39,522 bases of DNA from Jimgerdemannia flammicorona (Eukaryota). Where the stretch lies: the NCBI GenBank assembly GCA_003990765.1, contig RBNJ01000139.1:1-39522 (forward strand), read 5' to 3'. Every line of letters starts with the position of its first letter. Position 1 is the first letter of the stretch. Positions 3,281-32,428 of this stretch are shown one piece after another. Below the pieces are notes generated by a model. It did not search any database and had not been told where the DNA came from. It was given only the letters and a program-made list of their open reading frames with translations. The position numbers and the translations under genes are program-made.

Positions 3281-5929
3281 TGAGCGATTGTTTGGTGAGT
3301 TGATCTGTGAAATTCAGAAGTCAGGGTGTCTTACCTTTATATCCCTCAATTTTGACGCAGGAAATGAAATTACGTGACGGCAAGCCATTTTACGAAACGG
3401 GAAAGCCGCCAATTGATTTTTTTTTTTTTCGAGCGGTCTCAATTTTCCGGACCGCCAAATCGGGGCAAATATTGTGAGGCTGCGAGGTCATGTTACGTAA
3501 TTACGTTTAATCATGAAATCCTGGTGACAGGCCATAAACTTCATGTTACGTTTGGTGCGGTCCTATGTCGTCTTGTATTGAGCCAACTTACGGAAATTAT
3601 TCAGCCATCTGTATTCCGGTTGCGGCGTATTCTTTCATTATCTTGCTTGTTACAGACTCAAAAACGTGGTTTCCTCCGACTACAACTTTGTATTATTTTC
3701 CGCATTCGATCATGTTTGTCGTTAGGCACAAGTAATGCAAGGTGTTTTGATTCCGCGTATACCATCCCTAACATTACAAGCGTCATGCACTCTCGTGTAA
3801 CCAGGGCCTTAGGGGGCCTTGGCAGATGCCTGATGTTCTATACCACCGATCATATCTAGCCCGCGATCAAATGCGGCGCACAGGAACTGGACCCGGTTGG
3901 TCCAGCCCCCTTTTTCTGACCGAACACCGTAAGACATCACGTGATTATGTCACCCAAACCTGGATCGTCGGAAAGACGCCGAGTGGTACGGACGGTCGAA
4001 TCCGAGATTCAGTCACGCAGGTCACGCAGCCACCGGAGCGGAGTTTACGAGTTTCCGTAGCTCCGTAGAGGATAATAATAGATCACATCCATACATATAA
4101 ACCCCTGTTGGTCACTTTCCCCTTCTTAGATGTTAAGTCGCTGGTGAGCTGTCATGCTTGAACGTGCAATTCGAATACCCTCACACTTTATCCGTCTTCA
4201 TATTCACAATGCGTAGAACTCCGCCATATGGAACTTATTGTTCTGATAATCGGGACATGGTGAAGTGTGTCATCAATGTCGTCGTTCTTGTATCTATCCG
4301 GTTTTTCCGTTACAAAACAATCGTGTTTACTTTCAGTGTTTCCAAATAACTCAAGTTGCTGTTTCACTTCTGGTAAAGTCGACGCTCATGAATTCGTGTT
4401 CGTTTGTTTATGACACTGTTTGCCGAAAGGTGGTAAGAATAACTCACGCTTGAATTCAGACATCGTTGAAAACGGACACATTTCATGTTTCCTCCTTGCC
4501 AGCATTCATATGTAACTTCAGCCAGTCGGCCCTTGAAAAGGTTGCATTTTCTTGTATTTTTGTTTTGCTTCTTTTTATTTTGTTCCATGTTACCTTTACC
4601 TCCCCCTTCTTCGACGGCTTCTACTCTTCTATTTCTAGAACCGCCCTAAAAAAAAACGAATAAAATAGGAGCTACATCCCGGGCAGTCGATAACTAGATA
4701 GGTTACTCTTTGCTTGATTGCTTGCTCTCAATTCGTGATTTCTTTCCTTTCTGCCTTTACCATCTTTAATTTTCAACCCCAGAAATTACAGAAACCTTTG
4801 TCATCACACGTCAAAAGACGGGGCCAGTGACACAACTAACATGCAAAGTTTATATGGGGAATTGCGTTTCAGAAGCACAATCATCACAGATATATGACAC
4901 AGAGAGCCAGAATATAAGCCCAAGAACCTCTCGATCTTGTCTCACGTCTTCGATGCTTTCGTGGGTTTATGATGTACAAATTTTCTCGACTTCCTTTTCG
5001 GCTTCTTTTTCTCGTTCTTAGCTTTCTCCTATTCTGACACAACATTTTTGCTGACGCAGATCACTGTCAGTCGTTAAATCGGATTTCTTGCCGCTATATC
5101 TCCTCTACCAACTGATTACTGAAATCCATATTTTGTAAATATGTTCTGCAAACACGTAACATTGCAAAGTGATGGTGAAAATTCCCACTCGCTGGAAACG
5201 TCTGTTGGATGGACAGATAGTTGGAAACACCTGCCATCTCTTTTTATTGATCGGCTTTAACGTCAGTTTCGCAATAAACTCGACCAAGCTTGCCTTACAC
5301 ATCGAATTACAATTTCACAATCTTTGTCACTCTGTCCGCCCAACTTCATTGAAGGTGGTTATTTTTGTATGTCGCCAAACGTCGATGAAATGCTACCCTG
5401 GAATATTGACATTAGCGACCACAAGGGTCTTGCTTGACTTTCATCTGCGGATAAATCAGCAACGGTAGATGGCAAGCGTCGAGTAAAGATGAAAGAGAAG
5501 GATTGATCCCAAGGTGTACACGACGACAATAGTCATACCACTAAGCTCCGTAAATCAAATAGCGGGAGTATCGTCAACAAGAAGTGGTTCCTTTCTTTCA
5601 GAACGATCGATTTAAAATGCTATTCGGACGAATTTATTACCGTGGTGGATGCGGCAAACTCCTTGAGCAACAAGGCGCATTCATAAGGAAAAAGCGTAAA
5701 GAGCAACACTAGAAGGTCTATGTATAATAAAAATGGGAGGAAAGAAAGCCTCACCCTATAATATAAAATATACATACACAAACAGATACGGTAGGTACAT
5801 GTAAAACAGGAACGTATGAGAAATCATCATGTCAATATTGGAGGAGTTTGACGGAGTGCCTATTGTTTGATCTATACATTATTCTTTGTGTATCTGAAAC
5901 CATATTGGCACAATCAGGTTTCGCGTAAT

Positions 5930-6290
5930 TCAGATGGTACGGGAGCTTGAGTTTTAAAGCCTGGGACACACGGCCATCACCTTCTCCACAAACTCTCTGG
6001 AGGGCTCGTCACATTCATTAAGCTTCAACTGCTCCAACGTTATCCGTCTCCTTTCCCCCTCGTGAGATTAGGACTCATGAAGAGGCAAATGTGCCGTAGT
6101 TGACGGCCATAACGCAGCAGAGACAACAGCACAGCATCATCCACCCTTATGTCGTTCACCACATGAAACGCGCACATTTTTCGGCAGTTGTCTATAAGTT
6201 GGTTCAGTGAAGCGCTGGTAACGCTGTTGGATACAACCGGGCCGACGAAAAAATTGGCAAGCGAGAATGTGTCGAGCGACAGGCAGCAGG
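5930..6290 (-). pseudogene. Fragment of an F-box/RNI-type Cys-containing LRR protein C-terminus
   Basis: Translates LNQLIDNCRKM..VDDAVLLSLLRYGRQLRHICLFMSPNLT, then after a frameshift TLEQLKLNECD..VMAVCPRL*. No 5' part is found; it abuts the TPR fragment. Confidence 0.45.
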
Positions 6291-6294
6291 CGGA

Positions 6295-7400
6295 TCGCCA
6301 GCGTCCATTCGTAAGCAGCTCCGTCTCGCCGCATTTGTCCTGGCTGCCATAGAGCTTAGCCAGATTGTTCAGGGATAATGCCGTGTCGGGTTTCTCTGAT
6401 CCCAACACCTTCCCACTTATGGCCAGTGTCTGTTCGTACAGCGGCTCCACCTTGTCATACTTGCTCGTAGGATCTGTTTACTGTTTTTAGAAAGAGCATT
6501 AGAGCATCACGCTATCGTTCAAAAAGGGATGCTTGTATGGCGTCTGCTTGGAGAAAGGCCCAAATATCGAGAATTCGGGTTGCCAAGATATTACGTTTCT
6601 TGTTTTCTTGGAATGACAACTTCCACACCGTAGCCACTGTCTCTTGTAGGTGCTCGGGTTGCTGCAATCACTGTCAGTGAGTAGCACTTTAGGATTTTTT
6701 TAATCAACTTAAGGTAAGCTTTAAAAGTTGTCTTAGTCCGTTCAATATAAGAACAGGTGATATTTATGGCCACCGGCAGGTAGTCGAGCTCCTGCACAAT
6801 ATTCCGAGCATTGATTGTTGTGGCATCATCAAACAGAGGTCGCCAATCAAGCAGATGAAGAGCCTACTCGTTAGCCATCTTATCCACTTCTATTACGGTC
6901 GCCCATAAAGGGACATGATTTCGAGTTGTAACGATAACGTCTACGCCCGTTGCAGGAAAATAAGGATCTGCATTATCAAGATATCCAAAAGACGCAACCA
7001 GCCCGTTCTCGATCCAAGTCATTCACGAACTAAATCGATCAGAGTTTCGTCATTGCCGGACCCGTTTGCCTCTATGTGTCTCCCGAGCTTCCTCTCCAGC
7101 CCGCGAAATTCATCCAGAGTCGCCTTGCTACCATCGACACGGAGCCAGAATACGTAATCATAGTCGTCGCGGCGCTGGTAGCAATAGTTTAGCATAAGCT
7201 CGGATTCCTCATGTCACCAATGCCTTTGTTTGAGTGTATACTTTGTTTATTCTGTCTGGTTGTCTTACATGGAAATACCGCACAATACTTTCATCTCTCA
7301 ATAGCTGCACCACATCTTCATCATTCATAATAATAATATACGGCACCGAATACCAAGTTAGGCATTTTGGTCGCGATGACCCTGGCTTCGGTAGCAAAAT
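6295..7400 (-). pseudogene. Degenerate NB-ARC/STAND NTPase-TPR (fungal NLR-like) gene
   Basis: Motifs in the expected order, with frameshifts and stops: WYSVPY; decayed Walker A GIGDMR(K)SELMLNY; YDYVFWL; Walker B ILDNADP (~6975); ELDYLPVAI..SYI (GLPL-like); kinesin-light-chain-type TPR EPLYEQTLAISGKVLGSEKPDTALSLNNLAKLY. Confidence 0.8.
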
Positions 7401-7681
7401 TGTCCCATTGAATTAGCAGTATAAGCGTAAGCGCTAAATGTTTATACATGTTTAAAAAGGGGTGGAGGGAGGGAGCTTCAAATAAGACACATAAGTACTA
7501 AGCGCGAGTAATGATACAGATAAGATTCATGAATGCTGAGTGCGAGCAATCAGGGCTGAAAGGAAGAAGACAACTTAGCAAATGGCAGCGGCCGACATCT
7601 TGTTCAATGAATAAGAGTTGAGAAGGCCTGGAGAAATAGAGGAGAAATTGCAGTGTGTATAAGATATGCATGTATAGTGGA

Positions 7682-8833
7682 CAGCTCCTTTCTCTGCTAC
7701 CATACCAGTCACAAGGTATGGGTAGGCAACTGTCTGGGTCCTCTTTCTCCTAACTTTACACTCTCTACCCCAGTGTGGTTTGCTGTACCTGCAAGAGTAT
7801 AGTGGGAGGAGGGCAATGGTGATAAGTTGCTCCTTTATCAGTGTCAGATTAGTGCTTCTTTTACTTTTTTATAGTTTCTGGTATCTCCAGCTATATCTGG
7901 GATATACCTATTTTAGTATAGTACTTTCTTCTCTATAAGATATTGTCTCAGTATATTATGGATTATACGTATATAGAGTCAGCTGACCTTGGATATCAAG
8001 TACCAATATAGATTATCTGCAGATTGCCAGTATCTGTAGTGGGGCCCTCTGAGCTTTGATAAGCTTTCTGGTAAGTATGATTCTAATATAAGTAACTGCT
8101 TTTTAGAAAGAGTCAAGATGAGAAGAGAGATGGTCATTATAGATAGAAGGCAGAGCAATTATAGTAAACCAGTAGAGTGCTAGGCTGAGAGTAGTCATTA
8201 GGGCTAGAGCAGATACTATATCAGTGAGACCTTCTGATTGATGCTAGATAGATATCACTCTTAGTAGCTCTCAGTAATATATAAGATTAAACTCTCTAAT
8301 AATTAGATTATTGAAGGACTTAAGGCTATCTAAATCAGATATCTTGACTGTACTTAACTAGAACTAAGAGCTGATGTAGCAATATAATCAAGATCTACAG
8401 GCTTGAGTAGTGGGGTCTTCTCTCACCTTATGTATAAGTTCTCTACCCATCTTATTGAAGAGAACTAGGCCCTACTCACTACTTGGTATCTTATAGAGGA
8501 TTTTTATTTACCTATTACTCTACTTAGAGTGGCAGAGACTATACAAATTGGCTCAAACATAGTCTTATATATATATTGGGGTTTCAGATATATACCTTCA
8601 GTTATAAGTATATAATTACTTTCCCCTGATGGTAGAAAGAGCATGATGTACAGAATAAGATACAGACTAATATAAGCCCTGCTGTGCCTAGTATAGTTAA
8701 GCTGCTAGACAATAGCTAGCCTAAATTCATAGAGATACAGTACTTGGTGGGAGAGTGGGGAAGGGTTTTGACCTTTATAGTCTAGGTTCTCTTTCAATAA
8801 AAATCCATAGAGAGAATGTTCCTGTTATAAAAG
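7682..8833 (+). mobile_element. Non-coding non-LTR (SINE-like) retroelement, copy 1, heavily C>T/G>A eroded
   Basis: Colinear along its length with the reverse complement of 30367-31550 and starts at the same AGCTCCTTTCTCTGCTACC. AATAAA near the 3' end; flanked by ATATGCAT(G/A)TATAGTGGA at 7664-7681 and 8846-8863 (TSD, preceded by a TA run). Confidence 0.85.
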
Positions 8834-9419
8834 ATATATATATATATATGCATATATAGTGGAATGTATAGTGCACGGGTATGTTTGTGCAATTGACACA
8901 TGATCCCACTCTGATCCAGAATATGCAAGGAGCAGGAAGTGTAGATTGTGGTATTTTTATTTTTATTTTTATTTTTATTTTTCGCAGATAAAAATGGAAA
9001 GCCTTGACAGACGTGCAGTCCTCGGCCTACGCGATCATGAACTGTTCAGCGGGGCTGTGTGCTTGTGTAGAATCTAACGCAGACTGAGTGGAGCCTATGT
9101 ACTCAGCAGCATGACTCATCGGCCTGCGAGCCCGTAGTAATCCTCAAAGCAATTCGTGAATTTGGTGAATTTAAAATTTCACATGACTAATGTTACATGG
9201 GAAGAGTCTCTTTGTTTTTTATTATGCGTCAATTCAGTCTGGCTTAATGGCAAACAAATCGGAGGTAACGAGCTCAAAAATACTTGTGTGCTATGTAATT
9301 ACTACAGGCGCCGTTAGACACAACCTTGATACCAGTCGTCAGCCGTGCTGACAATGCCATACATTGCATGCTCGCCAAGAATCGCAAATGAGAAAATAAT
9401 ATCTCATGCATACAAGAAA

Positions 9420-10452
9420 ATCACCTTAGCATTCTCATCCCAACTCATTCATCCCCACGCACGGTTCGAATAGCTTCCAGTGCTTCATGTCTGTCTCACT
9501 ATCCGCTTCCCAGTTGTTAGTCCACAGGACGTGGATGACGGAGTCGACAATCTGCGGCATGACAGGGAAGAGGGATGACATATATTAATACAGAGGCTTC
9601 AGAAAGAAGTAGTTACGGTCATCGAGAAGGGGAGGGAAATAATAATACTGAATACCGCACGAAAAATCGCACTGTCCACCCTAACCACGCACACTATGAC
9701 ACGTCTACAAACTCCCAACTCCGAAGTCGGCGAAACCTACCTCATCCTCTCCCAGTACGTGACGACAGTCTTGTAGGTGGCAGAGACGTTGAGCGCCTCC
9801 ATCAGGCTGATGACGGTGCTGTTGTGGTAGAGGGGTATGAATAAGAATATAAGATCGTGTTCCGTTATCACACCCAACACACAACAAAACCAGTATATTC
9901 CACACAATACATACCACCTTAACCTCCCATTCCTCATCTTCTGGTTCCCATAAAAATGTTCTTCAGGGTCTCAAGAAACTGGATATTCATGTCGCCGGCG
10001 CAATCCTTCCTCTCTCTCCCATCCTTTTCAACTCCTCCCCCAATTATCATCGAACCGGAACTTGCGACTATGCGAGGTCGCCGGCGGGACTGAGGTCCAA
10101 CGTCCGTCCCGGATCACACCAGGCCGCAGGCTGGGGAAGGAAAGGTGTCGCGGGATGAGGGGAGGTGTGTGCGAGGATGCGTCTTAATGCGGACTGGCAC
10201 GGTTTTGCTGGTTGAGGCTATTGGAGCATGACTCAGACAGAAGACCGTGGTGGGAGCAGTTATGTCTGGCAGCGAGCCTAGGGGTGGGATTGAGGCAAGA
10301 GTCCGTGTCCGTGTTGCCGTGTCTTCAAAGGGGTGGTCTAGGCTTGCTAACATGGGACCACCCGTGGTTGCATCGGTGGGGCGAGGGGGTGTGTGGAAGG
10401 AGGCGGAGAGGACGAAGAGATTGTCGGAGAGGGAGGGGTCCGTGGAGTCCAA
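9420..10452 (-). pseudogene. Possible disrupted intron-containing gene of unknown function
   Basis: GC-rich exon-like blocks bounded by GT/AG (TVISLMEALNVSATYKTVVTYWERMR; IVDSVIHVLWTNNWEADSETDMKHWKLFEPC). I could not join them in frame, and no family was recognised. Confidence 0.3.
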
Positions 10453-10646
10453 GCGGAATGGTGATTCGGCAGAATGGTCAGAATAGCGGTAAGGTAGAGC
10501 GATCTACGAGGTTAATAGTATTGTTTTATTTCAACCAATGATATTGTCCCCTTATTTATTTCAAATAAAAAACAAAGCGCCGCAGCAAAAAATATAAACG
10601 TTGGAAAAACCGAAATTACCCTCCCGTTTTTCGTTCGAGTGGCAGA

Positions 10647-12499
10647 ATGAAGACAATTATTCTTATATTTCTGGCTTGGATTGTTGCCGCCATTGGCACT
10701 AGAGGGTCTGTAGTTGCTTTATATGTTGGTCCTTCACTTTGCCACAAGTTCTCAGAGGGACTATTTGTTCTTCGGTTTACAGTGATGACGAAATCATAAC
10801 GCCAAACCCCAGGGTTCAAGTGGGGATGTTGGTGGAGCACAATCCTGTACGGCCCAACGCTGTTGTTGAAGGTAGAGTAACGCAACCATGCCTTTTCTAG
10901 GCATGTACTCTACCTCTCTTACATCAAGAAACCTCCCCCATTCTACCAGGCAAAGTGCGACTTTTCGCCAAGGAACCGTACGAGGCTTTCTCGATCTACC
11001 TTTCTTTCTCGTGCGTTGAATCGTTCACAATAAAGACGAAGCTCGATGATAATGCGTTCCTTGCCGACGACCTCCAGACCCCGCTTTCTTTGCTTAAGAA
11101 CTACTCGGCCGTTGCAACTGATGAAGACTTCGACCAGACAAATCGGATATTGTCGTCCCCGACCGGAAAATGGATAAGCGTCAGAGAGCAGCGCATCCTT
11201 TTTGATACTGGAGTGTACCTAGAGATCAATCGCACAGGTATTCTTAAGATTCGTTAAATGAATGTACTCTGATTACTGTTGTTTGTAGTTTGCTTATATC
11301 CATGTCGACGTTCATAGAACCCTTGTACGGCGAACACATTTTCCCCTTCTTTCTCGTTCTTCCCGACACGAATTTTCCTCCGGAAGAGAAAATCAGCATG
11401 GATTACGTGGACCAACTACATGAAATCGTAAGTGCAGTTCCCATCCAAATCTCAGATTTTACTCTCGGTTCCGCATATTCATTCCCTCTTGTACAATAGA
11501 AAATGTTCTCCTACAACATTCACTATGGTTATAAAGTCCAGATCCGTAACAGCACCGCCTCGCCGGTCGGCCTCGCCGTGCAAACGGACTTCACCCCTAC
11601 GGTTCTTTCACCGCGTCCCTCATCTTCTGCCCCGCTCACCATCACACACACCTACACCTGCCGTCTACCTCACTGTACCGGTCAATACACGAGTACTAAA
11701 ATGCTGGCTACGCTCCCTATGGGGGACACCTATGCCCTTGGTTCGGACACTGAATTTTCTTCGTGCTCAGTTCCTATTCAGGTTCACGCTTCTAAATGCA
11801 AAATTCTCCATTTTATTTTTGGTAGGCGACACCATTCCGCTCACACTCTACTTCACATCCGACACCCCGGAACCCACCGATACCATCTTTTACCTCGTCG
11901 CCACCGTTTCAGGGCACTTTACTGCGCTTCCAGTGCATCCGAATCGACCGTTGTCTTGGAGCTCCTCTCACCAATTTCCGATTAGGAGTTTTTTCCACGA
12001 AGATCCCATGACCCTCGATATCACTTTTGATAAACCCCTGGAGCTTTCCGTCCCCCTGAGCGCCCTCAAGTTGCCATCCTTCCGTGCTCGCCACAGCGTA
12101 TATAACTACACCCTAGACCTTCAGCTCATGGCCAAGAACTTTTGGAGTCCACAGACCGCGCAGGATGTGTTCACATTCAAAATCCCCATCACTATCGTCT
12201 CAGCGTGGTCTTCTCTCCCTTCGCCAAAATCCTACGATGGAGGTCAATCCGTTGCCACACCCTACTTTGCCAACCGTAGTGTGAAGCAGCTAACGGCCCA
12301 TGAGAGGGATCTAGGTGCAAGGCGAGAGAAAGATGTTTTTATTGTGAAGGAACGCCTGGAGGTGGGAAGGCATGGAAGTAAGTGGCTTCCGGAGGATTTA
12401 CCCTTCGGGTGTTGCTGGCAATGGCTCTCTAAGACGAGAGATGTGTACACTCCCACTGGGTGTAACAGTTTCACACCTTTTGGATGTACCATTTATTAA
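10647..12499 (+). CDS. Putative secreted arrestin-like beta-sandwich protein (~494 aa, 6 exons)
   Basis: Exons 10647-10705, 10783-10846, 10901-11237, 11318-11427, 11500-11740 and 11826-12499 join in frame via GT-AG introns (1485 nt). Hydrophobic N-terminus MKTIILIFLAWIVAAIGTRG; arrestin-like segments GKVRLFAKEP..IYLSF, GEHIFPFFLVLP, LPSF..YNYTL..KIPITIV. Confidence 0.65.
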
Positions 12500-13307
12500 C
12501 TACCGCTTTATCAACAAGGTTGTAAAGTGGAGGTTTCCCGATGAAAAAAAGGCAACACAATGTCAGGGTTTTCATAAATTAAATATGATGAGTTTAGTTA
12601 ATGTGAAGTTGTAAACAAATATTTAGCCGTTATGAAGAGCAGGCCCGTGGGCGACTCTTCCATGGAGCGCTGGCATCCACGCAAGCGCCGCGCTAGCAAA
12701 CAAACCAATATCACCATTCTTTCCGCCCTCTTGCATTATCTGTACCTTCGTACTCGTGGCAAACCCGAGAAATTAAATGTCAATCCCATGCCGTTCCCTT
12801 GCAGTACACGCTATGAGCATGGTCAACTCAGGTCGCGTAGTCGAGGTCTTTAATGAAGCTGTGGCATCAAAGCCAGTTGTGACGAATGTGTCGTGATGCA
12901 GGATGCGGGTGTCATCCTCCCTTCAACCCACCAACGTCTTTGTGATGATACATCGCAGTATTTACGACAAGGTCCCTTTCAGACCACGCATCGCCACGGA
13001 CCTCACAGCATGCTTGGGTCGCGCTATTGATGATCGACATAAACTTTGATGCTTCAATGTCGAGTAGTTCAAAGTAAATGCGCACTCTTGGCCAGTCACT
13101 GCGGCGGGCGACCATCCGAAGACACATAATAAATATTATTTTTTAAATACATTTGCCCGCTTGCTCAGCTGACAATATTTAATCTCATCACTGGCAAATA
13201 TCGTAGATTACTCCCTTTTTGTAAATGAATTCGGGATATTTACAAAAGGTCAAAGTGCAACTATTATGGAGATAAACAACTACCGACATCACCATATTGA
13301 TATTGGT

Positions 13308-14699: not shown

Positions 14700-16240
14700 T
14701 TTGTCTGCAGCCTTTGGCTTATTGCCCGGAAAACCACCTGCTTGCAAATAAAGGAGCAAGATATTCATTATGTATAAGTCAGGTAGGACTTTCAGATGGA
14801 AATACATAGATATAAAGACAGTACTGGGATATAAATATACAAATGATAATATACCTCAGAAGATTATTGCTCACAGGTTTTCCAACTCAGTCTTTGTATA
14901 ATACTTACTGATGGATCCATTGACAAATCTGAACTTGGATTCAGAGATGGACTCAGATCCAGAGGTGATCTCAGCTTGAAGTTTCTCAAGATATACCATA
15001 GATTCAGAGATGTTATCTAGCTATTCCTCACTAGCAATATCTGTCTCTATACTTTCAAGATCTTCAATACCATGTCAATGGTGAGTTGTATTTCAGGGAC
15101 AAGTTTCCAGTATCTTTTGTAAATGTTAGAATATTTGGATGTTGTTCCAGGGATGAGTTCCTCATATAATCCAGGGGAAGTCACATTGAGTAGATGTAAT
15201 ACAGTTCCATGAGGGTGGCACCTTACTGTAAGTTACTATAGAAGTATTCTAAGGTAATATATGTCAGATTTTTTATGCATAGTGAATTTTCCTTAAATAC
15301 TTCAGGTGGAAAATATTCCACCTGGTTATAAATTTGGCTGCATTGCTTATATCAACATCAATAATCATGGGGTTAATATTGGGTTTATCTAAGAATATAA
15401 TGTTTCTCAGATATAAGTTATTGTGGATATGAATCACTTGTAACTAGCAAGTGATATCTATAGTAATCTGCTATATATTCAATCAAAAACTTAGTAGAGA
15501 CTTAGTAAGAAGTTGTATAAGATTACTGCCAGTAGTATATTTCAATACTATAATATAGCAACTAGTCATATCATCTATTAATAATCTTATAATGGCTGGT
15601 GTTAATACTCTATAATATTTGGAGGGTTGAAAATAAAAGTTGAGTAGTATCTATATAATAAGTAGAGCAGGAGTATCTAATAAGAGTTAGTTATAAAAAG
15701 AATATAAAGACCAATTTCTGTAGATATAAGAGAGTAAATTGCAATAATCTTATTCTAGAGTTGATTTATTGTTAAATAATCATTTTCTTTCAATACCTTC
15801 AATACAATAATTTTTTTTTCTTTCCAATTATCACTCACTTTGGTTTTATATATAATGCTAAATCTATCTTCACCTAGCTTCTCAACTAGGCTAAATTTAC
15901 AATAAGGTATCCAAGTCATACAAACTTCAAGTTTGATGATTTGAAGCTTTATTAGACACTTTATAAGCTTCTTGTCATCACTGTAGAAGCCAGATTTAAA
16001 CTTTAACATAACTCTGATATCAGAATTTTCAATTATATCTATAATATGAATAAGTTGTAATAGGCTTAATACTATTTTGTAAAGTATAGCCAGTTATGAG
16101 CTAAGTGTCTTTGCTTAAGTAGTAATGGACAATTGGTAAAGTTCTTACATATTATTGAGAGAGGGTTTGATCTTGATGAAGTTTATATTTTACTTCAGAA
16201 AATCAGCAATAATACCCAATGTCTTATTACTGATAACATT
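14700..16240 (-). pseudogene. Degenerate TKL-like protein kinase, the C-terminal part of the LRR-kinase gene
   Basis: MTWIPY..LGEDRFSIIYK..IVLKVL (subdomains I-II); IHNNLYLRNI (HRDLH.GNI-like); IIDVDIS (DFG position); YFPPEV..SDIY; GLYEELIPGTTSKY..YWKLVP. Many stops and frameshifts. Confidence 0.8.
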
Positions 16241-18025
16241 ATCTGATGAATAGTAGATAGATAAGTAAACATATATAGGTGGTAAGCTAGTATCTATTAT
16301 ATAACAGCAAACAGTAGTTCACATAGTTCAAACATACTTTATAGTCATGATCATGTTCTTGTGTTGTCTAAAGACAACAGAGAATAGATGCATAAATATC
16401 CAGAGGTAATGAACCAGTACTCATTATATAGCTACAAATAGCAGTTTACAAAATTCAAATATACTTTAGAGATTTAGTATAGTCACAGTTATGTTCTGCT
16501 TCTCTATCAGTATATATGCTCTTCTTTGGCCCATTACATTATCTAAAGGTAAACAAACACACATAGGTAGTGAGTTGGTATTCATTATATAGCTATAAAT
16601 AGCAGTTAATAGAGCTGAAACATACAATCAAGATCCAGAATAGGTATAGTCATGTTCTGCTTCAAAGACTTGATCAGTATGCAGTACATGTGCTCTCTTA
16701 TAGCCAATTCCATTATATGAAGATAAATGGAGGATAGATGAGAAAATGCATATGAGTAACTATCACACAGTAGCAAATAGTAGTTCATATAGTTCAAACA
16801 TATATCAGAGATTCGGTATAGTTATGGTCATGTTCTGTTTCAGAGACTTGGCCAGTATATATGTATACTCTCTTATTACCAATTTCATTATCTAAAGATG
16901 AACAGAGGATATATAAATAAATATGCACTGATAAACTGATATCTATTATATGGCTGCAAACAGCACTTTACAAAGTTCAAATATACTTTAGAGATTTAAT
17001 ATCATTACAGTCATGTTTTGCTTCAGAGACTCTGTCAGTATACATACCTCTTCTTGGCTAATTACATTGTCTAAAGATGAACAAAAAAAAGGATGAATAA
17101 ACATGCACAGGTGGCAAGTTAGTACTTATTACATATATAGCTATAAATAGTAATTTTAATGGAGTTGAAATATATAATCAAGATCCAGAGTAGCTATAGT
17201 CATATTTTACTTCAGAGGCTTGATCAGTATATATGCTCTCTTATGGTCAATTTTATTGTCTAAAGATGAACAGAAAATGAATGGACAAATGCACAGGTAA
17301 CCATCACTCAGCAGCAAACAGCAGTTCATATAGTTCAAATATATATCAAGATTCAGCATAGTTATGGTCATATTCTGCTTCAGAGGCTTAGTCAGCATAT
17401 ATCTGATTTTATTATCTAAAGATAGACAGAGGATGGATGAATAAATATGTATAGATAATGAACTAGTATCTATTATGCAATAAATAGCAGTTTACAAAGT
17501 TCAAAAATATATTGGAGATTTAGCATCACTATGGTTACATTCTTCTTCTGAGACTTGGCCAATATATACTCCTTCTTGGCCAATTACATTGTCTGAAAAT
17601 GAACAAAAAAAGGATGCACAGATAGTAAGTTAGTACTCATCATATAGCTATAAACCACAGTTGCTAGAGTTAAAACATATAATCAAGATCCAGATTATAT
17701 TCTACTTTAGAGACTTGGCCAGTATGTGTGATCTCTCTTGACCAATTCCATTGTCTAAAGATGAATAGAGGATAGATGGGCAAACATATACAGGTAACCA
17801 TCATATAGCAGTAAACAGCAGTTTATAAAGTTCAAATATATATTAGAGATTTAGTATAATTATAGTTGTGTTCTACTTCAGAGACTTGGCCAGTATATAT
17901 ACTCCTTTATAGCTAATTCAATTATCTAAAGATGAATAAAGGACAGATGAACAAATATATATAAGTAGTGAGCTGGTACCCATCATGTAGCTGTAAATAG
18001 CAGTTTGTATAGTTTCAACATATTA
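16240..18025 (-). repeat. Tandem array of ~11 exon+intron units (~170 bp), each exon one 28-aa RI-like/NLRC3-like LRR
   Basis: Acceptor TCTTTAG-like sites near 16243, 16368, 16543, 16716, 16892, 17071, 17260, 17416, 17593, 17755 and 17926. Exon 17070-16987 is exactly 84 nt between AG and GT and encodes NVISQEEVCILTESLKQNMTVMILNL; consensus N.I...G...LA.SLKQN.T...LNL. Confidence 0.85.
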
Positions 18026-19453
18026 TAATATATCAGCTCAATAGAGGCAAATTATAAGGTTTAAGCAGCTATATAGATTGGCTTGAGCCCTTAGTTACTT
18101 TGTTAAAAAGCAACAAAATGTTCAGTTGGTCTCTAAAAGTGTGAGTTCTTCTGTTAGTATAATGTGAATGATTTTGGTAATTTCCTTAATAGGTATAAAT
18201 CTGTATAATATAGTAAATCGGTAGATTTCTTTAAGTAGTAGCTAAGTTCTTTAGGCTTCATCTGGCAAGTGGACCAAAATGTGATAAATATCTCAAAGTT
18301 CTTTAGGCTTAATCTGGTAAGCAGACCAAAATTGATAGACTTCTTTATATCAGAAAGTAGACTAGAGTAGAAAAGAGAATAAAACTTACAATTTTCTTAA
18401 TAGTAGTTTTAGAGTAGGTATTTCTCCTAAGTATTGCAATCTTTTTCTTAAATTAAGTAACTCTTAGTAAGTATATATATCTCTCAAAGTATATTATAAG
18501 TAAACCTATCTTTTGTTTTTTTCTTTAACTTTTCAGATTGAGATTTATTCACTCAAATCTCTGAGATATTTTATATAAGTATGATTGCTACATATCTATA
18601 ATCTTCTTGGCTTTCTAGTCTGCTTAGTTCTGGAATAAAATATAAAATAAATATATTTATTATTTAATATAGAATAAATATTTTTAATCTTCATATCTAA
18701 TCAAAGGCACTCATTGGGTCTTCATTATATTTGCATATACTAGTGAAATTGAGAATTGTTCTGATATATGATTCTTCTTTCCTTTCTTACTCCAAGTTAT
18801 TTGAGAACTCTGAAAATATTTTAATAATGATTTTTAGCTACTAAATATATATTCATTTAATTTTAATTTGCATATTATATATATATATATAACTACTTAT
18901 ATATATTGAATCTGAACTCTCAGGCTCATTATCATAATAGTGCCCAGTATTCATTTCTTGACTATGATAAGGAGTAGTAGTAGTGGGAGATGCTATTATA
19001 GTATGTAGTAAGAGTTGTTGCAATTGACTTAAGATTTCTGAACCTATTGTCACATAGTGGTCGCTGAGTTCTTCAAATATGTCAGATTCTCTTCAAGGTG
19101 TATCTCTTAGACTAACTCAAGTTTGTTATAAGCAAGGTCTTATTGGAGTACCTTCCCAAGGTCTTATAGTCCTCAAACTTCTTATCTTTAAACTGTCTTG
19201 TTATCTCTTAGATTGCTTACAAGGAAGTATATATATTGTACTGAGAAGACTGACTTTATTTCAGAGGAAATAAGAGGGGTATTTATACAAAATATAATTT
19301 AATAGTTGCTAAGATATAAAGCTAAATATAAATTCCAATAACTAAAACTACTAAGTTCCAGGGCTGGTACTGATGATTGTACAGGTTCAGGATGCTGGCA
19401 TTATTTAGTATCACATCAAAATGCTGGTACTGGAACAATTTTGCATTACCTCA

Positions 19454-19549
19454 GAATACCAGTGCTGGCATTATCCAGTGTTATATGAGAATACCAGTGC
19501 TGGCATTATCCAGTGTTATATGAGAATACCAGTGCTGGCATTATCCAGT
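19454..19549 (+). repeat. 35-bp tandem repeat inside the gypsy A LTR
   Basis: GAATACCAGTGCTGGCATTATCCAGTGTTATATGA x2 plus a partial third copy; the sister LTR (~32834-32893) has one unit fewer. Confidence 0.85.
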
Positions 19550-19875
19550 ATAATAAAGAACTTTAGAGCAGAAAGTTCAGGATCATAGAGGCTTCATCAT
19601 CATCATTACTGAAGGAGATGAGATCTGCGAACTTGTCATGTAAGTCACACGTTTCGTGTATGTCATACAGGATAATGTCATCACATTCAGCTGTGGTGGG
19701 AAAATCAGGAACAAGGAGATCTAGAGCTCTCCAGTCTATGAGGTTCTCTTCCACAAAATAGAGAACAAATATGAAGTCTTGGAGAGGTCTAACCTGGATG
19801 CTTGGGCCTTGGAATACTGAGATCAATCCTTGCAGGAATTGGTCTGGGTTGTTCTGAAGGATAGAATGCCAGAAG

Positions 19876-22800
19876 TGTTGAGATTATAGGTTACAACTCG
19901 ATATAGCACTTGATATAGATAATTTGTGGCATAGTAGAGTTGAGGTGACATTATCAATAATTGTGTAAAAGCACATAACATTAGGTGATCAATAAACATT
20001 CTTCTTCTCCCATTCTTCCTATTCCTCCTGAGTTCACAACAAAGGTTATAAGCCCTGCTAGCGAAAGTGGATAATATATACACCTCTTTAGTATACACTA
20101 CACTACAATGTACGAAGATGTCAAACTTAGGAAGTCCAAGCTCAAGTGCTGCGGTGCCAAGTCTGGCAAGTAACACAAGCAGAGCAGGTACTAGTGTGGG
20201 TACTACAGTCCCTCTGGTGGGTGCCCCAGTGATTACTCCAGTGGTAGCTATGACAACAAAAAGAATGATTCCTGTCTTCGACAGTAAGGATTATACCATA
20301 TAGGCATACCATATGAGGAACCTCTTGGAGGAATGTGGTCTAGAGGGCTACTGGAAGCTACAGGCTCAAGTAATGAGATACAATACAGCAAAGGATTGCA
20401 AGATGTTGAGGGAGATCACATTCACTCTATTGAATGAGTAAATGAAACTCATTATAAATGCTACGATAGCAAATGAAGCCTGGGAGACCCTACATGATCA
20501 TTATCAATAAGCATCCGTGTCCAACAGATTCCACCTGAAGGGACAGTTATTCAATCTATGGAAGAAGCCCAAGAAGAGTATTCAAGAGTATGCCAACTGT
20601 ATTAACGATCTGACAAATTAGGTGAATTCTCTTTCTATGCCAGTGGACCTCATCAGAGAGGAAGACAAGGTCCTGGCCCTTATACGAGGTCTTCCCAACA
20701 TGTTTAATGTGGTCATGTCCACTATGTGGGAATCTGATAAGCTCTCGGACTATAAGTACATCATCATGAGCCTATTAAATGATGAATCAAGGCAGAACAA
20801 TGGTGCAAATGAAGACTATGATGAGAAAGCGTTCTATGGCATGCATGGTTGAGACAAAGAAAAGCCAAGCAAAGGATAAGAACAACATAATGGTCAATAT
20901 GCCAAATTTGGCAGTAAGTGCTTCTACTGTAATAAGCCTGGACATTATGTCCAAGACTGCAATCTTAAGAAGAAAGAAAAGAGAGACCAATGTGGTCAAG
21001 CAAATGTCATGGACACCAACAATCAAGGTGGCAATGGAATGTTTTTCACAGAGACAGAGAGCTACCAATATGCTAATGTAAGCTATATATCTGATAGCAC
21101 TAATGTATGCAGCAAAGAAGTTTGACTCATGGATTCTGGTACAACACAACATATGACAGTGCACCGCGAATAGTTCTCTACGTACAAGAAGTTCAAGCAT
21201 CCCGTACCTATCAAGCTAGGTGACAACAATGTGATCTATGCTCAGGGCAAAGGAAATATTGGTATACATCTGCATGGAAAGGTCGAAGAACCCTCAGGCA
21301 CCTTTGCGAACATACTATATACTCTGGATATAGGCAAAAATCTCTTCTCAATAGGACGAATGATGGCCTGAGGAGACAAAGGAGTAAATATATGTCTGAA
21401 TAGAGTAATGGTAATCGATCTAAAGAATAATAAGGAATTAATGTATATATCGAAAAGAGGAAATCTTTATGCAATCGATGGTATGCCAAACAGTACATCA
21501 GCATATTCTGCAATGACAAATGACACCTGGCATATATGGCATGAATAATTAGGACACATTGGCCAGACAAGCTTAGAACAGATGATGAGGAATAGCTCAG
21601 TGAAAGGATTGCTGAACTGTACATCTCCGAACTTCTTTTGTGATGACTGCGTAGTGAATAAGGCTTCTCAGAAATCTTTTCAGGAATAGATGAAGTGAGC
21701 AAATGGTATACTCGACCTTATACATATGGACATTTGCAGTCCCATACATATGTTGTCACACTCCAGGAAGAAGAACTTCATTACTTTCATAGATGACTAC
21801 ACTCATAAGGCTCACATATACTTCCTCTCTACAAAGAGCAAAGTATTCAAGAAATTCAAAGAATTTAAGGCAAGCATGAAGAATGATACGAAATGTCAGA
21901 TAGGGATGCTACACTCGGATAATGGGATAGAATATGTAAATAAGTCCTTTAAATATTTTTTAAAAGAGTATAGAATATGACATATTAGAATGGCTCCCTA
22001 TATACTGCAACAAAATGGTATGGTGGAACAGTTCAATAGAACAATCATTGAGATGGCCTGAACAATGATGAATGCAGCTGGCCTGCTGCAATCCTTCTGA
22101 GCCAAAGCATTGAACATAGTGGTATATATACGTAATCGATTCATTTCTCAAGCCTTATGCAAAGAGAGTGACATACAGTCTAAGGATGATAACCTTATAC
22201 CTGAAGAACTGTGGAGTGGATCTAAGCCTGATGTCTCACACTTATGGATATTCAGAAGTGAGGCTTACATATTGGATAAAAGTAGAAATAGAGGAAAATT
22301 CGAGCCTAAGGCAGATAAGCATATATTCCTTGGATACAACAGATCAGCATATAGGTTGTGGAATATGTAAAAGCATGGTATAATCATCTCTCATGATGTT
22401 CAGTTCAAAGAGAAAGTAAAGGAAATTTGTGTGGAAATTTCTATACCCATAATCAATCCAATGGCAAGTGGAATTACGCCAATAGTGAGCGTGAATACTA
22501 CACCAATGATTCCAGTAATGGCAACACAACCAATGCCTACAAGATCAATAGTGCAAGCACCTACAAGACCCCCTGAACCGAGAATTACGGAGATTTCGGA
22601 TAATGAAGAGGACATCTCTCTGAAGGGTAAGAAAAAGCACAAATCTGGGATGGATAACGAAGTCCAAGTAGATCTGGGAAATTACTGGGATCCACCCAAG
22701 TTATCTTGTCACAAGCAATATCATATGAACTATGCCTGCGAATGCACTTACATAGCAATGATCAGTGAGCCGGTACACTACAATGAAGCCATTCATTCGA

Positions 22801-24790
22801 GCAATAAAAAGGAGTGGAAAAAGGCTATGAATGAGAAGTATAACTCACTCATTGAGAATGACACATGGGACTTGGTCCCTCTTCTGGCAAATTGACAAGC
22901 CATAGGATCCCAATGGGTGTATAAAATCAAGTGCGATAGCAACAGCAGCATAGAATGATACAAGGCCTGATTCATGGCAAAAGAGTATTCACAAGACTTT
23001 GGAGTCGACTACAATGAGATATTTTTCCTGGTATTCAAGCTTACTTCACTTAGAATACTTCTTGCGATCAGAGCCAAGTATGATTATGAGATACATCAAA
23101 TAAATGTTAAGACAGCCTTTCTAAATGGAGATGTGGATACTGAACTATATGTTCTTCAACCACAAGGATACAAACTCTATGACAATGAGAAGGAGTTAGT
23201 ATGCAGACTATGCAAAGGCCTCTATGGTATAAAACAGGCGGTAAGGCTATGGAATCGAAAGATCGACAATTATTTTATAGAAGAGAACAGGTTCAAATGA
23301 TGTAAAGCAGATCTATATATATATACTCATCATACATCCTCAGGATGGTATACCTGGAAATTTGGGTTGACGATATCATTCTGGTCAGGATGACAAGTGA
23401 GATCAATAAAGTAAAGGTAGTATTACACAAGAAGTTCAAGATGACAGATATGGGTGATACGTCTTTCCTTTTGGGGATATCCATCATACATGACAAGAGT
23501 ACATATACTATATACTTAAGCTAAGAAGCCTACATTCAGACAATACTCAAGCGATTTGGCATAAGCGAGTACAAGCCAGTCAGAACACCAATGGAGACAT
23601 CTGTAAGACTAAAGAAGTCCAATACACCTGATGATAATGACATTCCCTATTGATAAGTGGTGGGATCTCTTATATATCTAATGCTTGGGATGAGATCCAA
23701 CCTATCACATGCAATTAACAAGGTGGCACAATATACATCATGCTATGACAACTCACATTGGATGGCAATCAAGCGCATATTCAGATATATACATTAAAGG
23801 TACAAAGAGCTATACGCTCAATTTGGATGATAAAGGAGTTAAAAGATTAAGCGAGAGTACTGTTACAGTAAGCCTTTCTGGTGTGTGTGATACTGATTGG
23901 GCTGGGGACTTAGATGACAGAAGGTCTACAATAGGATACTTCTTCTATCTTGATGATGGTAGAGCCATTTCATAGCAAACTCATAAGCAATCATCAGTGG
24001 CAACATTGTCTATACAAGCAGAATATCAAGCATTATCAACAGTGATAAAGGAGGCTATCTGGCTTTGTGAACTGCTAAAGGATCTGGGATTCCCTCAAGA
24101 ATCTATAACTATATGACAGGATAACCAATCCACCATTGCTTTGGCAAAGAATCCTATACATCATGCAAGGACTAAGCATATCAATATACAGCACCATTAT
24201 ATACGAGAATGCATTGAAAATGAGGCTATATACCTGTTATACATCCCTATGGAGCAAATGGCAGTAGATTTGCTAACGAAGGCCCTTCCAAAGGCAAAGT
24301 TTGATTTTTGCATACAAGAAATAGGTATAATGATGAGTGATAAGCAAATAATGGCGAATGATAGATAAAAATAAATATTATGGTGAAATGATAGGTAGAA
24401 TGAGTGTTATGGCAAATATTTGTGATGGAAACCTATAACATTGCTCAGGATTTCCATTTTTTCACTACTTCTCTTACCTATTTTTATGTTTATAAGTAGG
24501 GAATTTTGAACTTTTTTGGTCATCTAGATAGTATCTCATTGGTAATGTTTTGTTTTCTACTTAACTTAGCTAGAGATTGATCAGTTTTATTTATATTTGT
24601 ATTCTTTATCTCGTTGAGTGGGAGTGTTGAGATTATAGGTTACAACTCAATATAGCACTCAATATAGATAATTTGTAGCACAGTGGTATTGGGGTAACAT
24701 CATCAATAATTGCATAAAAGCACATAACATTAGGTGATCAATAAACATTCTTCTTCTCCCATCCTTCCTATTTCTCCTGAGTTCACAACA
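19876..24790 (+). mobile_element. Full-length degenerate Ty1/copia retrotransposon with a Ty5/Hemivirus-type PBS
   Basis: 166-bp LTRs TGTTGAG...CACAACA at 19876-20041 and 24625-24790. TSD AGAAG/AAAAG; the empty site in the sister LTR (~33216) has a single AGAAG. PBS GGTTATAAGCCCT; PPT GAGTGGGAG; gag CFYCNKPGHYVQDC; PR MDSGTTQHM; IN DLIHMDIC; RT KTAFLNG and WVDD; RH DTDWAGDLDDRRST. Confidence 0.95.
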
Positions 24791-27700
24791 AAAAGTCTTC
24801 TACTTCTTCACTATTAAGAGTGATAGTGGACTGGGCTTCTGTAGCCACCCTGGCTTCTAGTGCATTAATATGGCGGGATGATAGATCTCTGAAGTCTGAG
24901 ACTCTGATATACTCTAAGTTGGGGATCGACCATGGTGCATACCTGAAGATCTGATGAATCTTCTTAGCTATCCTCATTTCACATATATCCATAGGAGTGG
25001 CATCTTGTAGCTCTTGGGTACTGGCCTGTGGGAACTCTTGGCAGAGGAGGTTTCTTATTTCATACTCCTGCCACATTTGGAGGCATTTGGTAGCAATAGT
25101 AATCCTTGTTTCCATTTCATAGTGGTAGAGAATGAAGTAATAAGGGTCTGCAGTACTCAGGTTGACACTAGGAGTCCTTCTTGAGCAGGTCCCCATGGCT
25201 CTTCTGATGTCTTGAAATATTCTTTCCTTGACCGAGATACCTTGGTGATTCCTTGACCTTGAGGTTTGACAGACAGCAGGTATTTCATTTGTGGTAAGTC
25301 TTTGAGCTATTTTGGAATTGATGGTTCTTGTTAGTTACTGCTACTGCAGTTCCTTGATCCTTCTTTTATATTCTTCAGGATGCTTATACTGTGGTTACAA
25401 TGACTCATAGTTGGTCATCATTACTCATCTTGTATGCCATATGATCTTCTTGTGCTCTGATCTGGTGGCTTGTAAGGAAAGGCTGTCTCCTGTGCTGATG
25501 TCATCATTCTGGGGTCACTATTACATCTTCTTCCTGAATAAGGATCTTCCTGAGCATCCTTATTCATTGGTCCAGTTCTGAAAAATTTTCTGATCTCATA
25601 ACCTCTGGCAAGGGGTCAAAAAGTGGTATTTATGGGCTGGCATCTTCTCTTTGTATTTTGGCATGATGGTGAAGAGTTGCTCCCTTCATATAGAGTAAGG
25701 GCCTGATTCTGATCTTGACCAATCAGTTGATGGTTCGAACTCCTCTGACTTCGAAAGTCTCACAGATGAGTAGTTGCCAGTACTGTATCCTTTAGAGAAT
25801 GGTCCAGACAGATAGCCTGCTGGTCATGGGACATGCTGTTACAATTCACAGACTAGAACCTTATGGGTGGTCATCACATTTTGCTTCTCTTGTATAGGTT
25901 TGTGGTACTTCTTGAGTCTGTTCCTATATACCATGGTAGGCTGTATGGTCCCTGAGATTTTTCTAAGCCAGAAGGTAGTTCCCTTGATATCTTGTACATA
26001 GAAGGGTCCTTCCCATTTGGGCTCCAGTTTTCGCGACCATGAGGCTTCTACCATATTTCAATACAGTAGAACCTTTTCTCTGATTTGGATGGGTTCTAGG
26101 GCCTTGTGATTCTTTTCCATATTCTTTCTTGTCAGCACTTATAACTTGGTGATGTAATCTTCAGCCTTCTTCCTGATTTGGTATAGTCTCCAGATTTCTG
26201 CATCAACTCATCTCCAAGTTAGGTCTAGATTTGTAGCTGAGGTTCCATCAGAATCTTCTTCTCTGAAGAGCAGCTCTCTTGGGGTAAAATGTATGCTCTG
26301 TGACTGTATGTCTCATAGGACAGAGAGGGTGGTTGGGAGATGGTTATCCCAATTCTCATATGTCTCTGAGATCTTCACTAAGATGTTCTTGAGAGTCTTG
26401 TTGGTTCTCTCTGTCTGTCTATTTCCTTAAAGGTGGTACATGGTGGTCTTGATGTGCTGGATCTTGTATTTCTGATACATTATCTCATGAAATCCATTGA
26501 CAAATTCTGTGCCATGGTCTGTTGTGATTTGCTTTGGTGTCTTGTAGCAGCAGATGATTTCTCAATATAGGAAGTCAGCTATAGAGAGGGCATTGGCTTC
26601 TTATAATGCTCCTACCTCTATCCATTTAGTGAAGAGGTCTACAATAACTATAATATAGTGGTTTCCTGATAGTATTACTGGTAGTAGTCCAATAATATCT
26701 ATTGCAATGTGGTGGAAGGGGATAGACTCAATTCTTGATGACCCAGGTGCCTGGTCTTGCTGATCTTGTTTCTGTTTTTGGCACTTGTCACACCCTTTGA
26801 CAAATTGGCACAGGTCTTCTTCCATCTTGGGCCACTACATGGTTCTTCTTGCCTTATCATATGTATTGGTTCCTCCTAAGTGTCCTTGCTCATGTACTTC
26901 CTTCATTACTTGATACTTCTTGTGTTCGGGTATTACTAGCTTTCCTCCTTTTCTGAGTGTGGTGTTGTCTAATTCAAACTGTTTCCAAGTCCAGTTGATA
27001 ATAGTGATTGTCCAGGGTTTGAGGTGGTTGGGCATCTTCTGCTGCCCAAGGTAGCTAATTAATCCATAGTATAGCTCCTTATTCATATTGAATAATCTTG
27101 ATGAGGATGTTTTGGAGTGTCCTTGAGAGTGCATCAGCATTGGTGTTGGTCTTTTCTGAGCAGTACTTGATAGTACAGTTATACTCTTATAGCCTGTAGA
27201 TCCATCTGGTATATATTCCTTTGGGGTTCAGAGTGTTGAATAGTCAGGTAAGAGCAGAATGGTCTGTTTGAATGGTGAAGTGTTTCTTGGCTAGGTAGTA
27301 GTGGAACTTGTCTACTGCCCAAACTACTGCTAAGCATTCAAGCTTGCATGACTCATAGTTCTGTTCTGCTCTGCAGGTACCTCAGCTTGCATAGGAGATA
27401 ACATATTCATGTCTATCTTTCTTCTGAGCTAGGACTGCTCCAAGTCCTATAGTACTCGCATCTATCTGCAGGATGAATTCTAGGTTCCAGTCTGGTCTTC
27501 TGAGGATGGATGCTTGGGTCAATCTGATCTTGAGTTCATTGAAGGTTTCTTAGTATTCCTTGGTCCATTCAAATTTGGTCTCCTTCTTCAGTAGCTTGTA
27601 GATAGGTGCTACAATGTTAGAGTATTCTTTGATGAATCTTCTATAGTAGCTGGCCAGTCCAAGGAAGTCATAGACTTCTGTAGTTGTTCTGGGTCTTGGG

Positions 27701-32410: not shown

Positions 32411-32425
32411 AGCCAATGGGCACCA
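32411..32425 (-). promoter_or_regulatory. tRNA primer-binding site of gypsy A
   Basis: TGGTGCCCATTGGCT lies 3 nt inside the 5' LTR boundary; identical at 38366-38380 in gypsy B. tRNA identity not determined. Confidence 0.85.
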
Positions 32426-32428
32426 AGT

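Follow-up and report, generated by a model that had tools for sequence, protein, structure and literature searches.

A decayed array of one-repeat-per-exon leucine-rich repeats beside a kinase remnant in Jimgerdemannia flammicorona

The 39,522-nucleotide stretch of Jimgerdemannia flammicorona contig RBNJ01000139.1 analysed here (the window) carries on its minus strand, at 16.2-18.0 kb, a run of ~170-bp repeats followed by a kinase-like stretch. The question raised by this locus is what the repeats are and whether they once belonged to the same gene as the kinase. A first-pass annotation made from the letters alone had described the repeats as about 11 duplicated exon and intron cassettes, each exon encoding one leucine-rich repeat (LRR) of the ribonuclease-inhibitor (RI) type, in front of the kinase of a candidate receptor. 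Our analyses indicated that the cassettes, the type of repeat and the kinase are as described, that the copy is dead, and that the LRR array and the kinase were one gene, LRR then kinase, with a probability of roughly 0.55.

The direct repeats at 16.2-18.0 kb fall into 13 families, for example a 54-nt core present ten times, and are mostly 161-183 bp apart. Tandem Repeats Finder gave no row for this interval among its 34 rows and overlooked the array, because the repeat is too diverged. Alignment of the units over their full length revealed the following layout.

18110 to 16153, minus strand: array including the partial unit u0; 11 tandem units of ~170 bp and a partial twelfth
18026-18110, minus strand: u0, partial degenerate first unit and upstream edge of the array, from alignment of 17926-18110 with u1, u4, u5, u6 and u7
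16153-17925, minus strand: cassettes u1-u11, one exon and one intron each, the exon being one 28-aa RI-type LRR
17925-17842, 17754-17681, 17592-17511 and 17415-17345, minus strand: approximate exons of u1-u4, by homology
17259-17176, 17070-16987, 16891-16804 and 16716-16626, minus strand: approximate exons of u5-u8, by homology
16542-16465, 16367-16338 (truncated) and 16242-16153 (last, 90 nt), minus strand: approximate exons of u9-u11, by homology

Counted from a shared anchor, the units are 171, 161, 178, 156, 189, 179, 174, 175, 175 and 129 bp long, followed by the last unit. The likeness of u0 to the cassettes is limited to the intron and the 3' end of the exon, and no further sequence upstream of it aligned with the units. 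The coding-looking part of the units begins after TTTAG or CAG, and the acceptor AG is retained in 10 of the 11. The intron part opens with GTATGT or GTATAT in four units and with ATAT in seven, so that the donor GT is kept in 4/11 and replaced by AT in 7/11; it contains TACTAAC-like branch sites and ends with a pyrimidine run and AG. The exons of u1 to u11 are 84, 74, 82, 71, 84, 84, 88, 91, 78, 30 and 90 nt long (homology, manual count). Three of the 11 are thus exactly 84 nt and the frame is also kept in two more (78 and 90 nt). The intact exons are of 84 nt and phase 1-1, and the cassette introns are of ~85 nt (83-105 nt). Identity within the classes formed by every third unit (u1/4/7, u2/5/8 and u3/6/9) was 76-81%, and among the 27 between-class pairs it was 63-75% in 22 and 75-79% in the five involving u1 or u8. 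The recurrence of three classes at every third unit indicated that the array grew by copying three-unit blocks.

Read in phase 1, the exon peptides follow the pattern N.IG.EG...LAKSLKQN.TIT.LNL with a period of 28 aa, which agrees with that of RI-type LRRs (28-29 aa, LxxLxLxxNxIGxxGaxxLaxxLxxNxxL). The last LRR exon reads NVISNKTLGIIADFLK followed by a stop and N, exactly as it had first been read. A profile made from 11 exon peptides (two of 13 rows being left out) was scored against 1.84 billion representative proteins and matched 451 of them at E <= 0.001 and 101 at E <= 1e-10, the top match being at 3.5e-36, with 10-18 matched stretches per protein. Pfam LRR_6 (PF13516, ribonuclease-inhibitor type) was present in 50 of the 50 top profile matches with E values from 1e-25 to 1e-208, and the LRR reading is therefore sound. 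Proteins of Jimgerdemannia and several of Mortierellaceae were among the matches, and NLRC3-, NLRC5- and NOD2-named proteins were among those of a close relative. A word-indexed protein search gave no match for a 112-amino-acid open reading frame (ORF) of the region or for a 168-aa read-through of three exons.

Whether the cassettes are spliced as predicted was examined in relatives. Six short database 'proteins' (P0070, P0071, P0098, P0099, P0116 and P0138) are unspliced read-throughs of two LRR exons with the intron between them, and P0098 aligned with the window over exon, intron and exon (E 6e-14). P0087 and P0146 are likewise read-throughs of LRR exon, intron and LRR exon. Such 'proteins' are artefacts of gene calling: where the length of a unit happens to be divisible by three, the read-through frame can stay open by chance. 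They nevertheless mark where such cassettes occur. Seven soil-metagenome loci with LRR cassette genes of eukaryotic kind (L001-L007) were retrieved with an alignment of the six read-through 'proteins', and their LRR units are mostly 147-165 bp apart. Exactly 84 nt between AG and GT, mostly GTATGT, were found in 24 of the 27 units, or in 17 of 20 independent ones since L002 and L003 are near-identical. The frames of these units are open except for one TAG, in a unit common to L002 and L003, and the introns are 63-95 nt long with one of 247 nt. Intact relatives therefore have the predicted splice sites and phase, and the 84-nt phase 1-1 design proposed from the intact exons of the window holds. 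These loci and read-throughs also contain the LRRs closest to those of the window, at 25-30 bits per repeat versus 11-19 for most other proteins compared. They share with it the phase-1 exons of 84 nt and the AG..GTATGT borders, and differ in that their exons are mostly open and no kinase was seen with them.

Within the intact arrays, likeness of introns and of exons was 80% and 75% in L002 (15 and 21 pairs), 80% and 68% in L004, and 78% and 72% in L005. In a small sample, the peptides of the relatives' exons vary most at the x positions around LxLxxNx. Both features fit exon diversification after recent duplication of units, which from so small a sample is suggestive only.

A kinase is carried by 6 of the 150 best profile matches. 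P0004 and P0005, the two top-scoring matches with LRRs before the kinase, are both non-fungal, and P0011 and P0036 have the kinase before the LRRs. P0004 and P0005 were rejected as relatives, the former being from a metagenome contig and having a SidE_PDE domain and the latter being from a diatom. P0004, encoded on a 44.8-kb contig and third in the profile search, is a protein of 1502 aa that has a SidE phosphodiesterase domain in addition to an LRR_6 array and a PK_Tyr_Ser-Thr kinase. Its probable source is an intracellular bacterium or the host of one, and it is unrelated to the kinase of the window.

The closest kinase relative was found by a word-indexed search with P0016, a close LRR relative with ankyrin repeats before its LRRs. 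It is the protein BC937DRAFT_86469 of Endogone sp. FLAS-F59071 (P0216, 769 aa), which carries both LRR_6 and kinase families, the kinase being PF07714 (E 1.9e-22, aa 135-311). With this protein the part of the window below the array could be divided as follows.

16072-16152, minus strand: spacer of 81 nt that separates the last LRR exon from the kinase stretch; possible intron
16071 to ~15047, minus strand: decayed kinase, starting 81 nt after the last LRR exon
15758-16071, minus strand: pre-kinase region and N-lobe (..TWIPYCKFSLVEKLGEDRFSIIYKTK..), from phmmer and tblastn with P0216 and from Atlas
15273-15650, minus strand: kinase core (..IVLKYTTGSNL..) with catalytic loop IHNNLYLRNIIFLD and IIDVDIS at the DFG position, in another frame, from a hidden Markov model (HMM), Atlas and tblastn
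15047-15274, minus strand: kinase C-lobe, from KKSDIYYLRILL, two stops and L to YWKLVPEIQLTIDMVLKILKV and a stop, in the N-lobe frame and ending with TAG at ~15049-15047
14750-15046, minus strand: CpG-free stretch between the kinase end and normal DNA, with no LRR or kinase match

Comparison of P0216 with the window by phmmer gave E 3.2e-5 in two collinear pieces, aa 7-111 on 16069-15776 (domain E 0.00079) and aa 239-299 on 15274-15092 (domain E 0.025, N-lobe frame). By tblastn the N-lobe matched at E 7e-5 with 28% identity over 106 aa, and weaker collinear pieces were found between the two matches, for example aa 184-210 in the kinase core. An HMM built from the kinase domains of three search matches and run unfiltered on six frames of the whole window gave a single match (minus strand, 15590-15342, E 0.0066), a value that was not reached in any of 200 block-shuffled windows, of which the best gave 0.037. 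The longest stop-free frame of the region is the ORF of 112 aa (15758-16093) that holds the pre-kinase region and N-lobe. The protein-language-model tool Atlas placed this ORF nearest to Mucoromycota clusters, the nearest named clusters carrying kinase families. For a 56-aa ORF at 15273-15443 it returned families of the kinase clan, such as RIO1, APH, Kdo and Pkinase, at 0.87-0.93, scores that by the tool's own figures count as weak evidence. Alignment of the motifs of P0216 and the window gave AWVPP/TWIPY, GGFAKVYKTK/EDRFSIIYKTK, HEDLHPGN/HNNLYLRN and MIDVGLS/IIDVDIS, respectively. The DFG position thus reads DVG in P0216 and DVD in the window, and the HRD position HEDL in P0216 and IHNNL in the window. 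Positions with W and Q in P0216 are stops in the window, and the differences are mostly G-to-A or C-to-T. By homology, the downstream stretch is identified as a TKL-like kinase of the BC937DRAFT_86469 family, as the first-pass annotation had proposed for this strand, and on the residues read here the window copy could not be active. The kinase domains of P0004, P0005, P0011 and P0036 had no tblastn match in the window at E <= 0.01, and that of P0052 reached only E 0.099 by phmmer. Antibody light chains obtained in the PDB searches (E 0.07-2) were dismissed as chance.

The array and the kinase stretch lie on the same strand, and the spacer between them may be an intron. Its length of 81 nt is comparable with that of the cassette introns, it opens with ATATGTAAG where the cassettes have GTATGT and closes with AAAATAG, and its first ~23 nt agree with the cassette intron at 15 of 23 bases (manual count). 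Homology places the end of the last LRR exon in phase 1. Past the last stop of the kinase frame there is a single acceptor, the AG at 16073-16072; it is in phase 1, as the cassettes need, and opens the longest stop-free frame of the region. A search with P0216 by phmmer found no second kinase remnant elsewhere in the window, and no LRR was found below 16.15 kb or anywhere else in the window outside the array. The order LRR then kinase also occurs elsewhere, for example in protein P0196 of Hyaloraphidium curvatum. We consider on these grounds that array and kinase were one gene at the odds given above, and a single protein made of both is likewise favoured, at the same odds, although we infer it.

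Several observations weigh against this reading. P0216, the only close kinase relative, has the kinase first and LRR_6 last, the reverse of the window. Its Met1 aligns with ATA at 16087-16085, as if a separate gene had begun there, and its LRRs are not specially near those of the window, ranking 83 of 165. In the window a TAA at 16150-16148 follows the last LRR exon immediately in the LRR frame, and the spacer was rejected as a full cassette intron since 37 of 300 shuffles reached its score. No kinase was found at the seven loci whose LRR cassettes are closest to those of the window (94 of 176 ORFs scanned; most contigs are short). One of them, L001, has ankyrin repeats upstream of its LRR exons instead, in a long ORF of 409 aa (Ank_2 E 2e-62) that lies, within L001 1-1763, directly upstream of them and on the same strand. 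Since P0016 has the same arrangement, ankyrin-plus-LRR_6 is one architecture of the cassette family. The exons of the window units are no better conserved than the introns (73% versus 72%), so that there is no sign that the array in this form was ever selected. Searches with the decayed peptides themselves were also empty. Pfam matched none of the six single exon peptides, of ten, that were long enough to be scanned at E <= 10, these being of 27 aa, decayed and containing X, and a PDB profile search with the exon peptides gave no LRR protein. The Pfam kinase models (PF07714/PF00069) were unmatched in five separate frames and in the 126-aa core read-through with X, and PDB sequence searches with kinase frames and read-throughs gave no kinase. 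Of the LRR-kinase receptor first proposed, the adjacency of both parts on one strand has stood; the single protein does not follow from it, given the reversed P0216 and the seven loci with no kinase.

Two genes would account for part of these observations. The LRR tail of one kinase-first copy would abut the kinase start of another gene, either the following copy in a tandem or a neighbour that a deletion moved close after death. The kinase of the upstream copy would have been lost to retroelement insertions above 19 kb and the LRRs of the downstream copy near 14.75 kb. We regard both the arrangement and these two losses as possible, and hold them only tentatively. The position of the kinase at aa 135-311 of P0216, with LRR_6 towards the C-terminus, agrees with such an arrangement. 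So does the beginning of the P0216 homology at residue 7-8, with an ATA under Met1 that is one G-to-A change from ATG. The TAA directly after the last LRR exon, the spacer having no cassette likeness past its first ~23 nt, and the end of a retroelement at ~19047 point the same way. However, the 62 nt from TAA to ATA leave very little room for a terminator, intergenic gap and promoter together, and the acceptor that precedes the kinase stretch has the phase that the cassettes require. No minus-strand match to P0216 was found in 18.1-19.05 kb by tblastn at E <= 50 or by phmmer up to E 1000, although tblastn at E <= 50 does recover equally decayed pieces at 15-16 kb. The absence of LRRs below 16.15 kb also speaks against this arrangement.

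A membrane receptor kinase, with the LRR array outside, a membrane-spanning segment and the kinase inside as in plant and oomycete LRR receptor kinases, is very improbable. The first 19 residues of the junction ORF (ILYKIVLSLLQLIHIIDII) do score 2.03 on the Kyte-Doolittle scale, in AT-shifted decayed DNA, and in P0176, a metagenome protein, LRR_6 and a kinase occur together with a clear hydrophobic segment (2.38). Nevertheless, the junction stretch includes K, Q, H and D, and the decay of the DNA in which it lies favours I, L and F. The counterpart stretch of P0216 is non-hydrophobic, the maximum anywhere in that protein being 1.36. The N-terminus is unreadable, so that no signal peptide can be read, and RI-type LRRs are typically cytosolic.

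A non-coding satellite that is LRR-like by chance and lies beside unrelated junk is hardly credible: exon and intron parts equally conserved among the units and the empty Pfam and PDB searches with the peptides would agree with it, but it is refuted by the 451 proteins found by the peptide profile with LRR_6 in the top 50, by the 84-nt AG..GT exons common to the relatives and by the homology of the neighbouring stretch to a real kinase. Two further architectures found no support. For a NOD-like receptor (NLR), a scan of two ORFs in the 940 bp upstream gave neither a NACHT nor an NB-ARC match, and the spacer and kinase lie directly downstream. For a ROCO/LRRK protein, ROC and COR are expected after the LRRs and before the kinase, where the window has no more than 81 nt and a linker of ~50 aa.

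For the preferred reading of one gene, the history is as follows. Tandem duplication in three-unit blocks built an array of 11-12 cassettes, and the gene would have run from the LRR array through a phase-1 intron and a pre-kinase linker to the kinase. The product would have been a soluble LRR-kinase, with the kinase controlled by ligand binding at the concave side of the LRRs. Since all LRR exons are symmetric, the frame is kept when a unit is gained, lost or skipped. The copy then died: it was silenced, and C-to-T and G-to-A decay took away almost every CpG, broke most splice donors and brought many stops and indels. An immune or receptor role is pure inference.

The decay itself is evident. 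The LRR exons contain at least nine in-frame stops as well as frame-breaking indels, and the kinase core has four stops in 126 codons, which bears out the earlier view of a dead copy. Differences among the units comprise 219 transitions versus 55 transversions, and CpG observed/expected is 0-0.06 at 15-19 kb. Classical repeat-induced point mutation was rejected as the cause: TpA/ApT is high (0.95-1.10), but (CpA+TpG)/(ApC+GpT) is 1.12-1.41 and not low. That CpG is almost entirely gone is in keeping with deamination of methylated CpG and further AT drift. The window copy is a pseudogene of Mucoromycota type in methylated, transposon-rich DNA.

The surroundings are divided by composition. Positions 1-13000 resemble ordinary genes, CpG observed/expected being ~1 at 1-7 kb, 0.72 and 0.07 at 7-9 kb and 0.8-1.2 at 9-13 kb. 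From ~14750 to the end of the window CpG is nearly absent (0-0.4), and (CpA+TpG)/(ApC+GpT) is raised over the CpG-poor 14750-39522. A GH18 chitinase-like gene lies at 1479-3025 on the minus strand, with two open frames (E 4e-25 and 6e-27) and up to 58% G+C. A TPR_12/TPR_10-like fragment is found at 6043-6863, minus strand (E 2e-6, below Pfam's cut-off), and the ORF beside it reads like the pre-repeat region of NB-ARC-TPR proteins. Together they may represent what is left of an NLR-type fungal gene, ~8 kb away from the LRR array. Positions 7683-8806 are an inverted copy, 70% alike, of 30400-31548, part of a retroelement, and coincide with local CpG depletion at 8-9 kb. The other side of the array is occupied by the following feature.

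18111-19046, no strand assigned: upstream DNA, AT-rich (14-34% G+C) and CpG-poor, in which no remnant of coding sequence could be recognised

The 5' end of the gene was not identifiable in this interval, and Pfam gave no match for two ORFs scanned there. It is bounded at ~19047 by a repeat common to 32428-33224, the end of a long retroelement. The repeat in common with 32428-33224 contains, at 19453-19549, a perfect tandem repeat of 35 nt in 2.8 copies. A pair of 170-bp direct repeats (19874-20043 and 24623-24792, 91% alike) flanks ~4.6 kb with plus-strand gag-like ORFs and a zinc knuckle. Since 19047-19879 and 24793-25525 match the continuous 32428-33950, 19874-24792 looks like a long-terminal-repeat retroelement inserted in the end of another element. 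Two related retroelement copies occupy 25000-38400 on the minus strand (27398-29981 and 33967-37156 being 68-71% alike), and the ORF at 28625-29548 combines a dUTPase domain (E 1.3e-21) with part of a retroviral protease. With the array bounded by a split retroelement and CpG gone from ~14750, the locus is therefore a pseudogene at the edge of a silenced transposon field.

Comparison with known systems placed the locus as follows. P0216 is the closest kinase relative found; it shares with the window the pre-kinase region, an RI-type LRR_6 array of ~11 repeats and an origin in Mucoromycota, and differs in the order and nearness of its LRRs as described above. Hyaloraphidium curvatum P0196 ('kinase-like domain-containing protein', 804 aa) has N-terminal LRR_6 and a C-terminal PK_Tyr_Ser-Thr domain at aa 523-797, whereas its kinase gave no tblastn match in 14.4-16.15 kb at E <= 10, and it has a long coiled-coil-like linker and no WIPY-like region. 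Animal ribonuclease inhibitor and NLRC3/NOD-type LRRs share the 28-aa LRR_6 repeat type, and vertebrate NOD-type genes have one LRR per 84-nt symmetric exon; the array of the window differs from the NOD type in that no NACHT or other nucleotide-binding domain adjoins it and its partner is a kinase. Passages of two papers on fungal NLRs describe mainly WD40, TPR or HEAT repeats, and also ankyrin repeats, rather than LRRs, which is in line with what had been stated about these sensors. The brown-algal precedent also stood: according to passages of Zambounis et al. 2012 (PMC3341825), LRR-ROCO genes have a single exon per LRR, and exon duplication and shuffling remodel the array, although there the exons are of 72 nt (24 aa), the LRR type is another, the partner is ROC-COR and the kingdom is different.

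The evidence does not show the design to be new for fungi. LRR_6-plus-kinase proteins of Endogone sp. and Hyaloraphidium curvatum have already been deposited as hypothetical proteins. Passages of Soanes and Talbot 2010 (PMC2939053) report soluble fungal proteins with LRRs and a kinase, four in Batrachochytrium dendrobatidis and five in filamentous ascomycetes, the ascomycete genes being intronless and judged bacterial transfers; these passages name no Mucoromycota examples. Word searches of the open-access literature gave no paper treating fungal LRR_6-kinase proteins, by which absence is not established, and a literature search gave none linking WIPY with a kinase, nor did one on 84-bp LRR exons of NLRs yield anything of use. 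LRR arrays with kinases are thus already in deposited fungal proteomes and, as far as these word searches reach, seemingly undiscussed.

The window adds a dead member to an existing, undescribed family and points to its cassette design. Because the copy is dead and the fusion unproven, it is only a pointer to that family. More broadly, Mucoromycota and soil fungi related to them may hold a family of soluble RI-type LRR sensors made of 84-nt symmetric exon cassettes that would be duplicated, lost and moved between genes and would join kinase, ankyrin, MYND or NACHT partners in either order, the window being a dead LRR-then-kinase member; we offer this as a speculation that is unlikely to hold as a whole. 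RI-type LRR arrays with a strict design of one repeat per symmetric exon do exist in Mucoromycota-like genomes, and this design lets the repeat number vary without a break of frame. The cassette family is a concrete place in which to test exon-level variation and diversifying selection. If the broader proposal were true, fungi would have their own equivalent of the exon-shuffled receptor repertoires found in brown algae and of animal NOD-type receptors.

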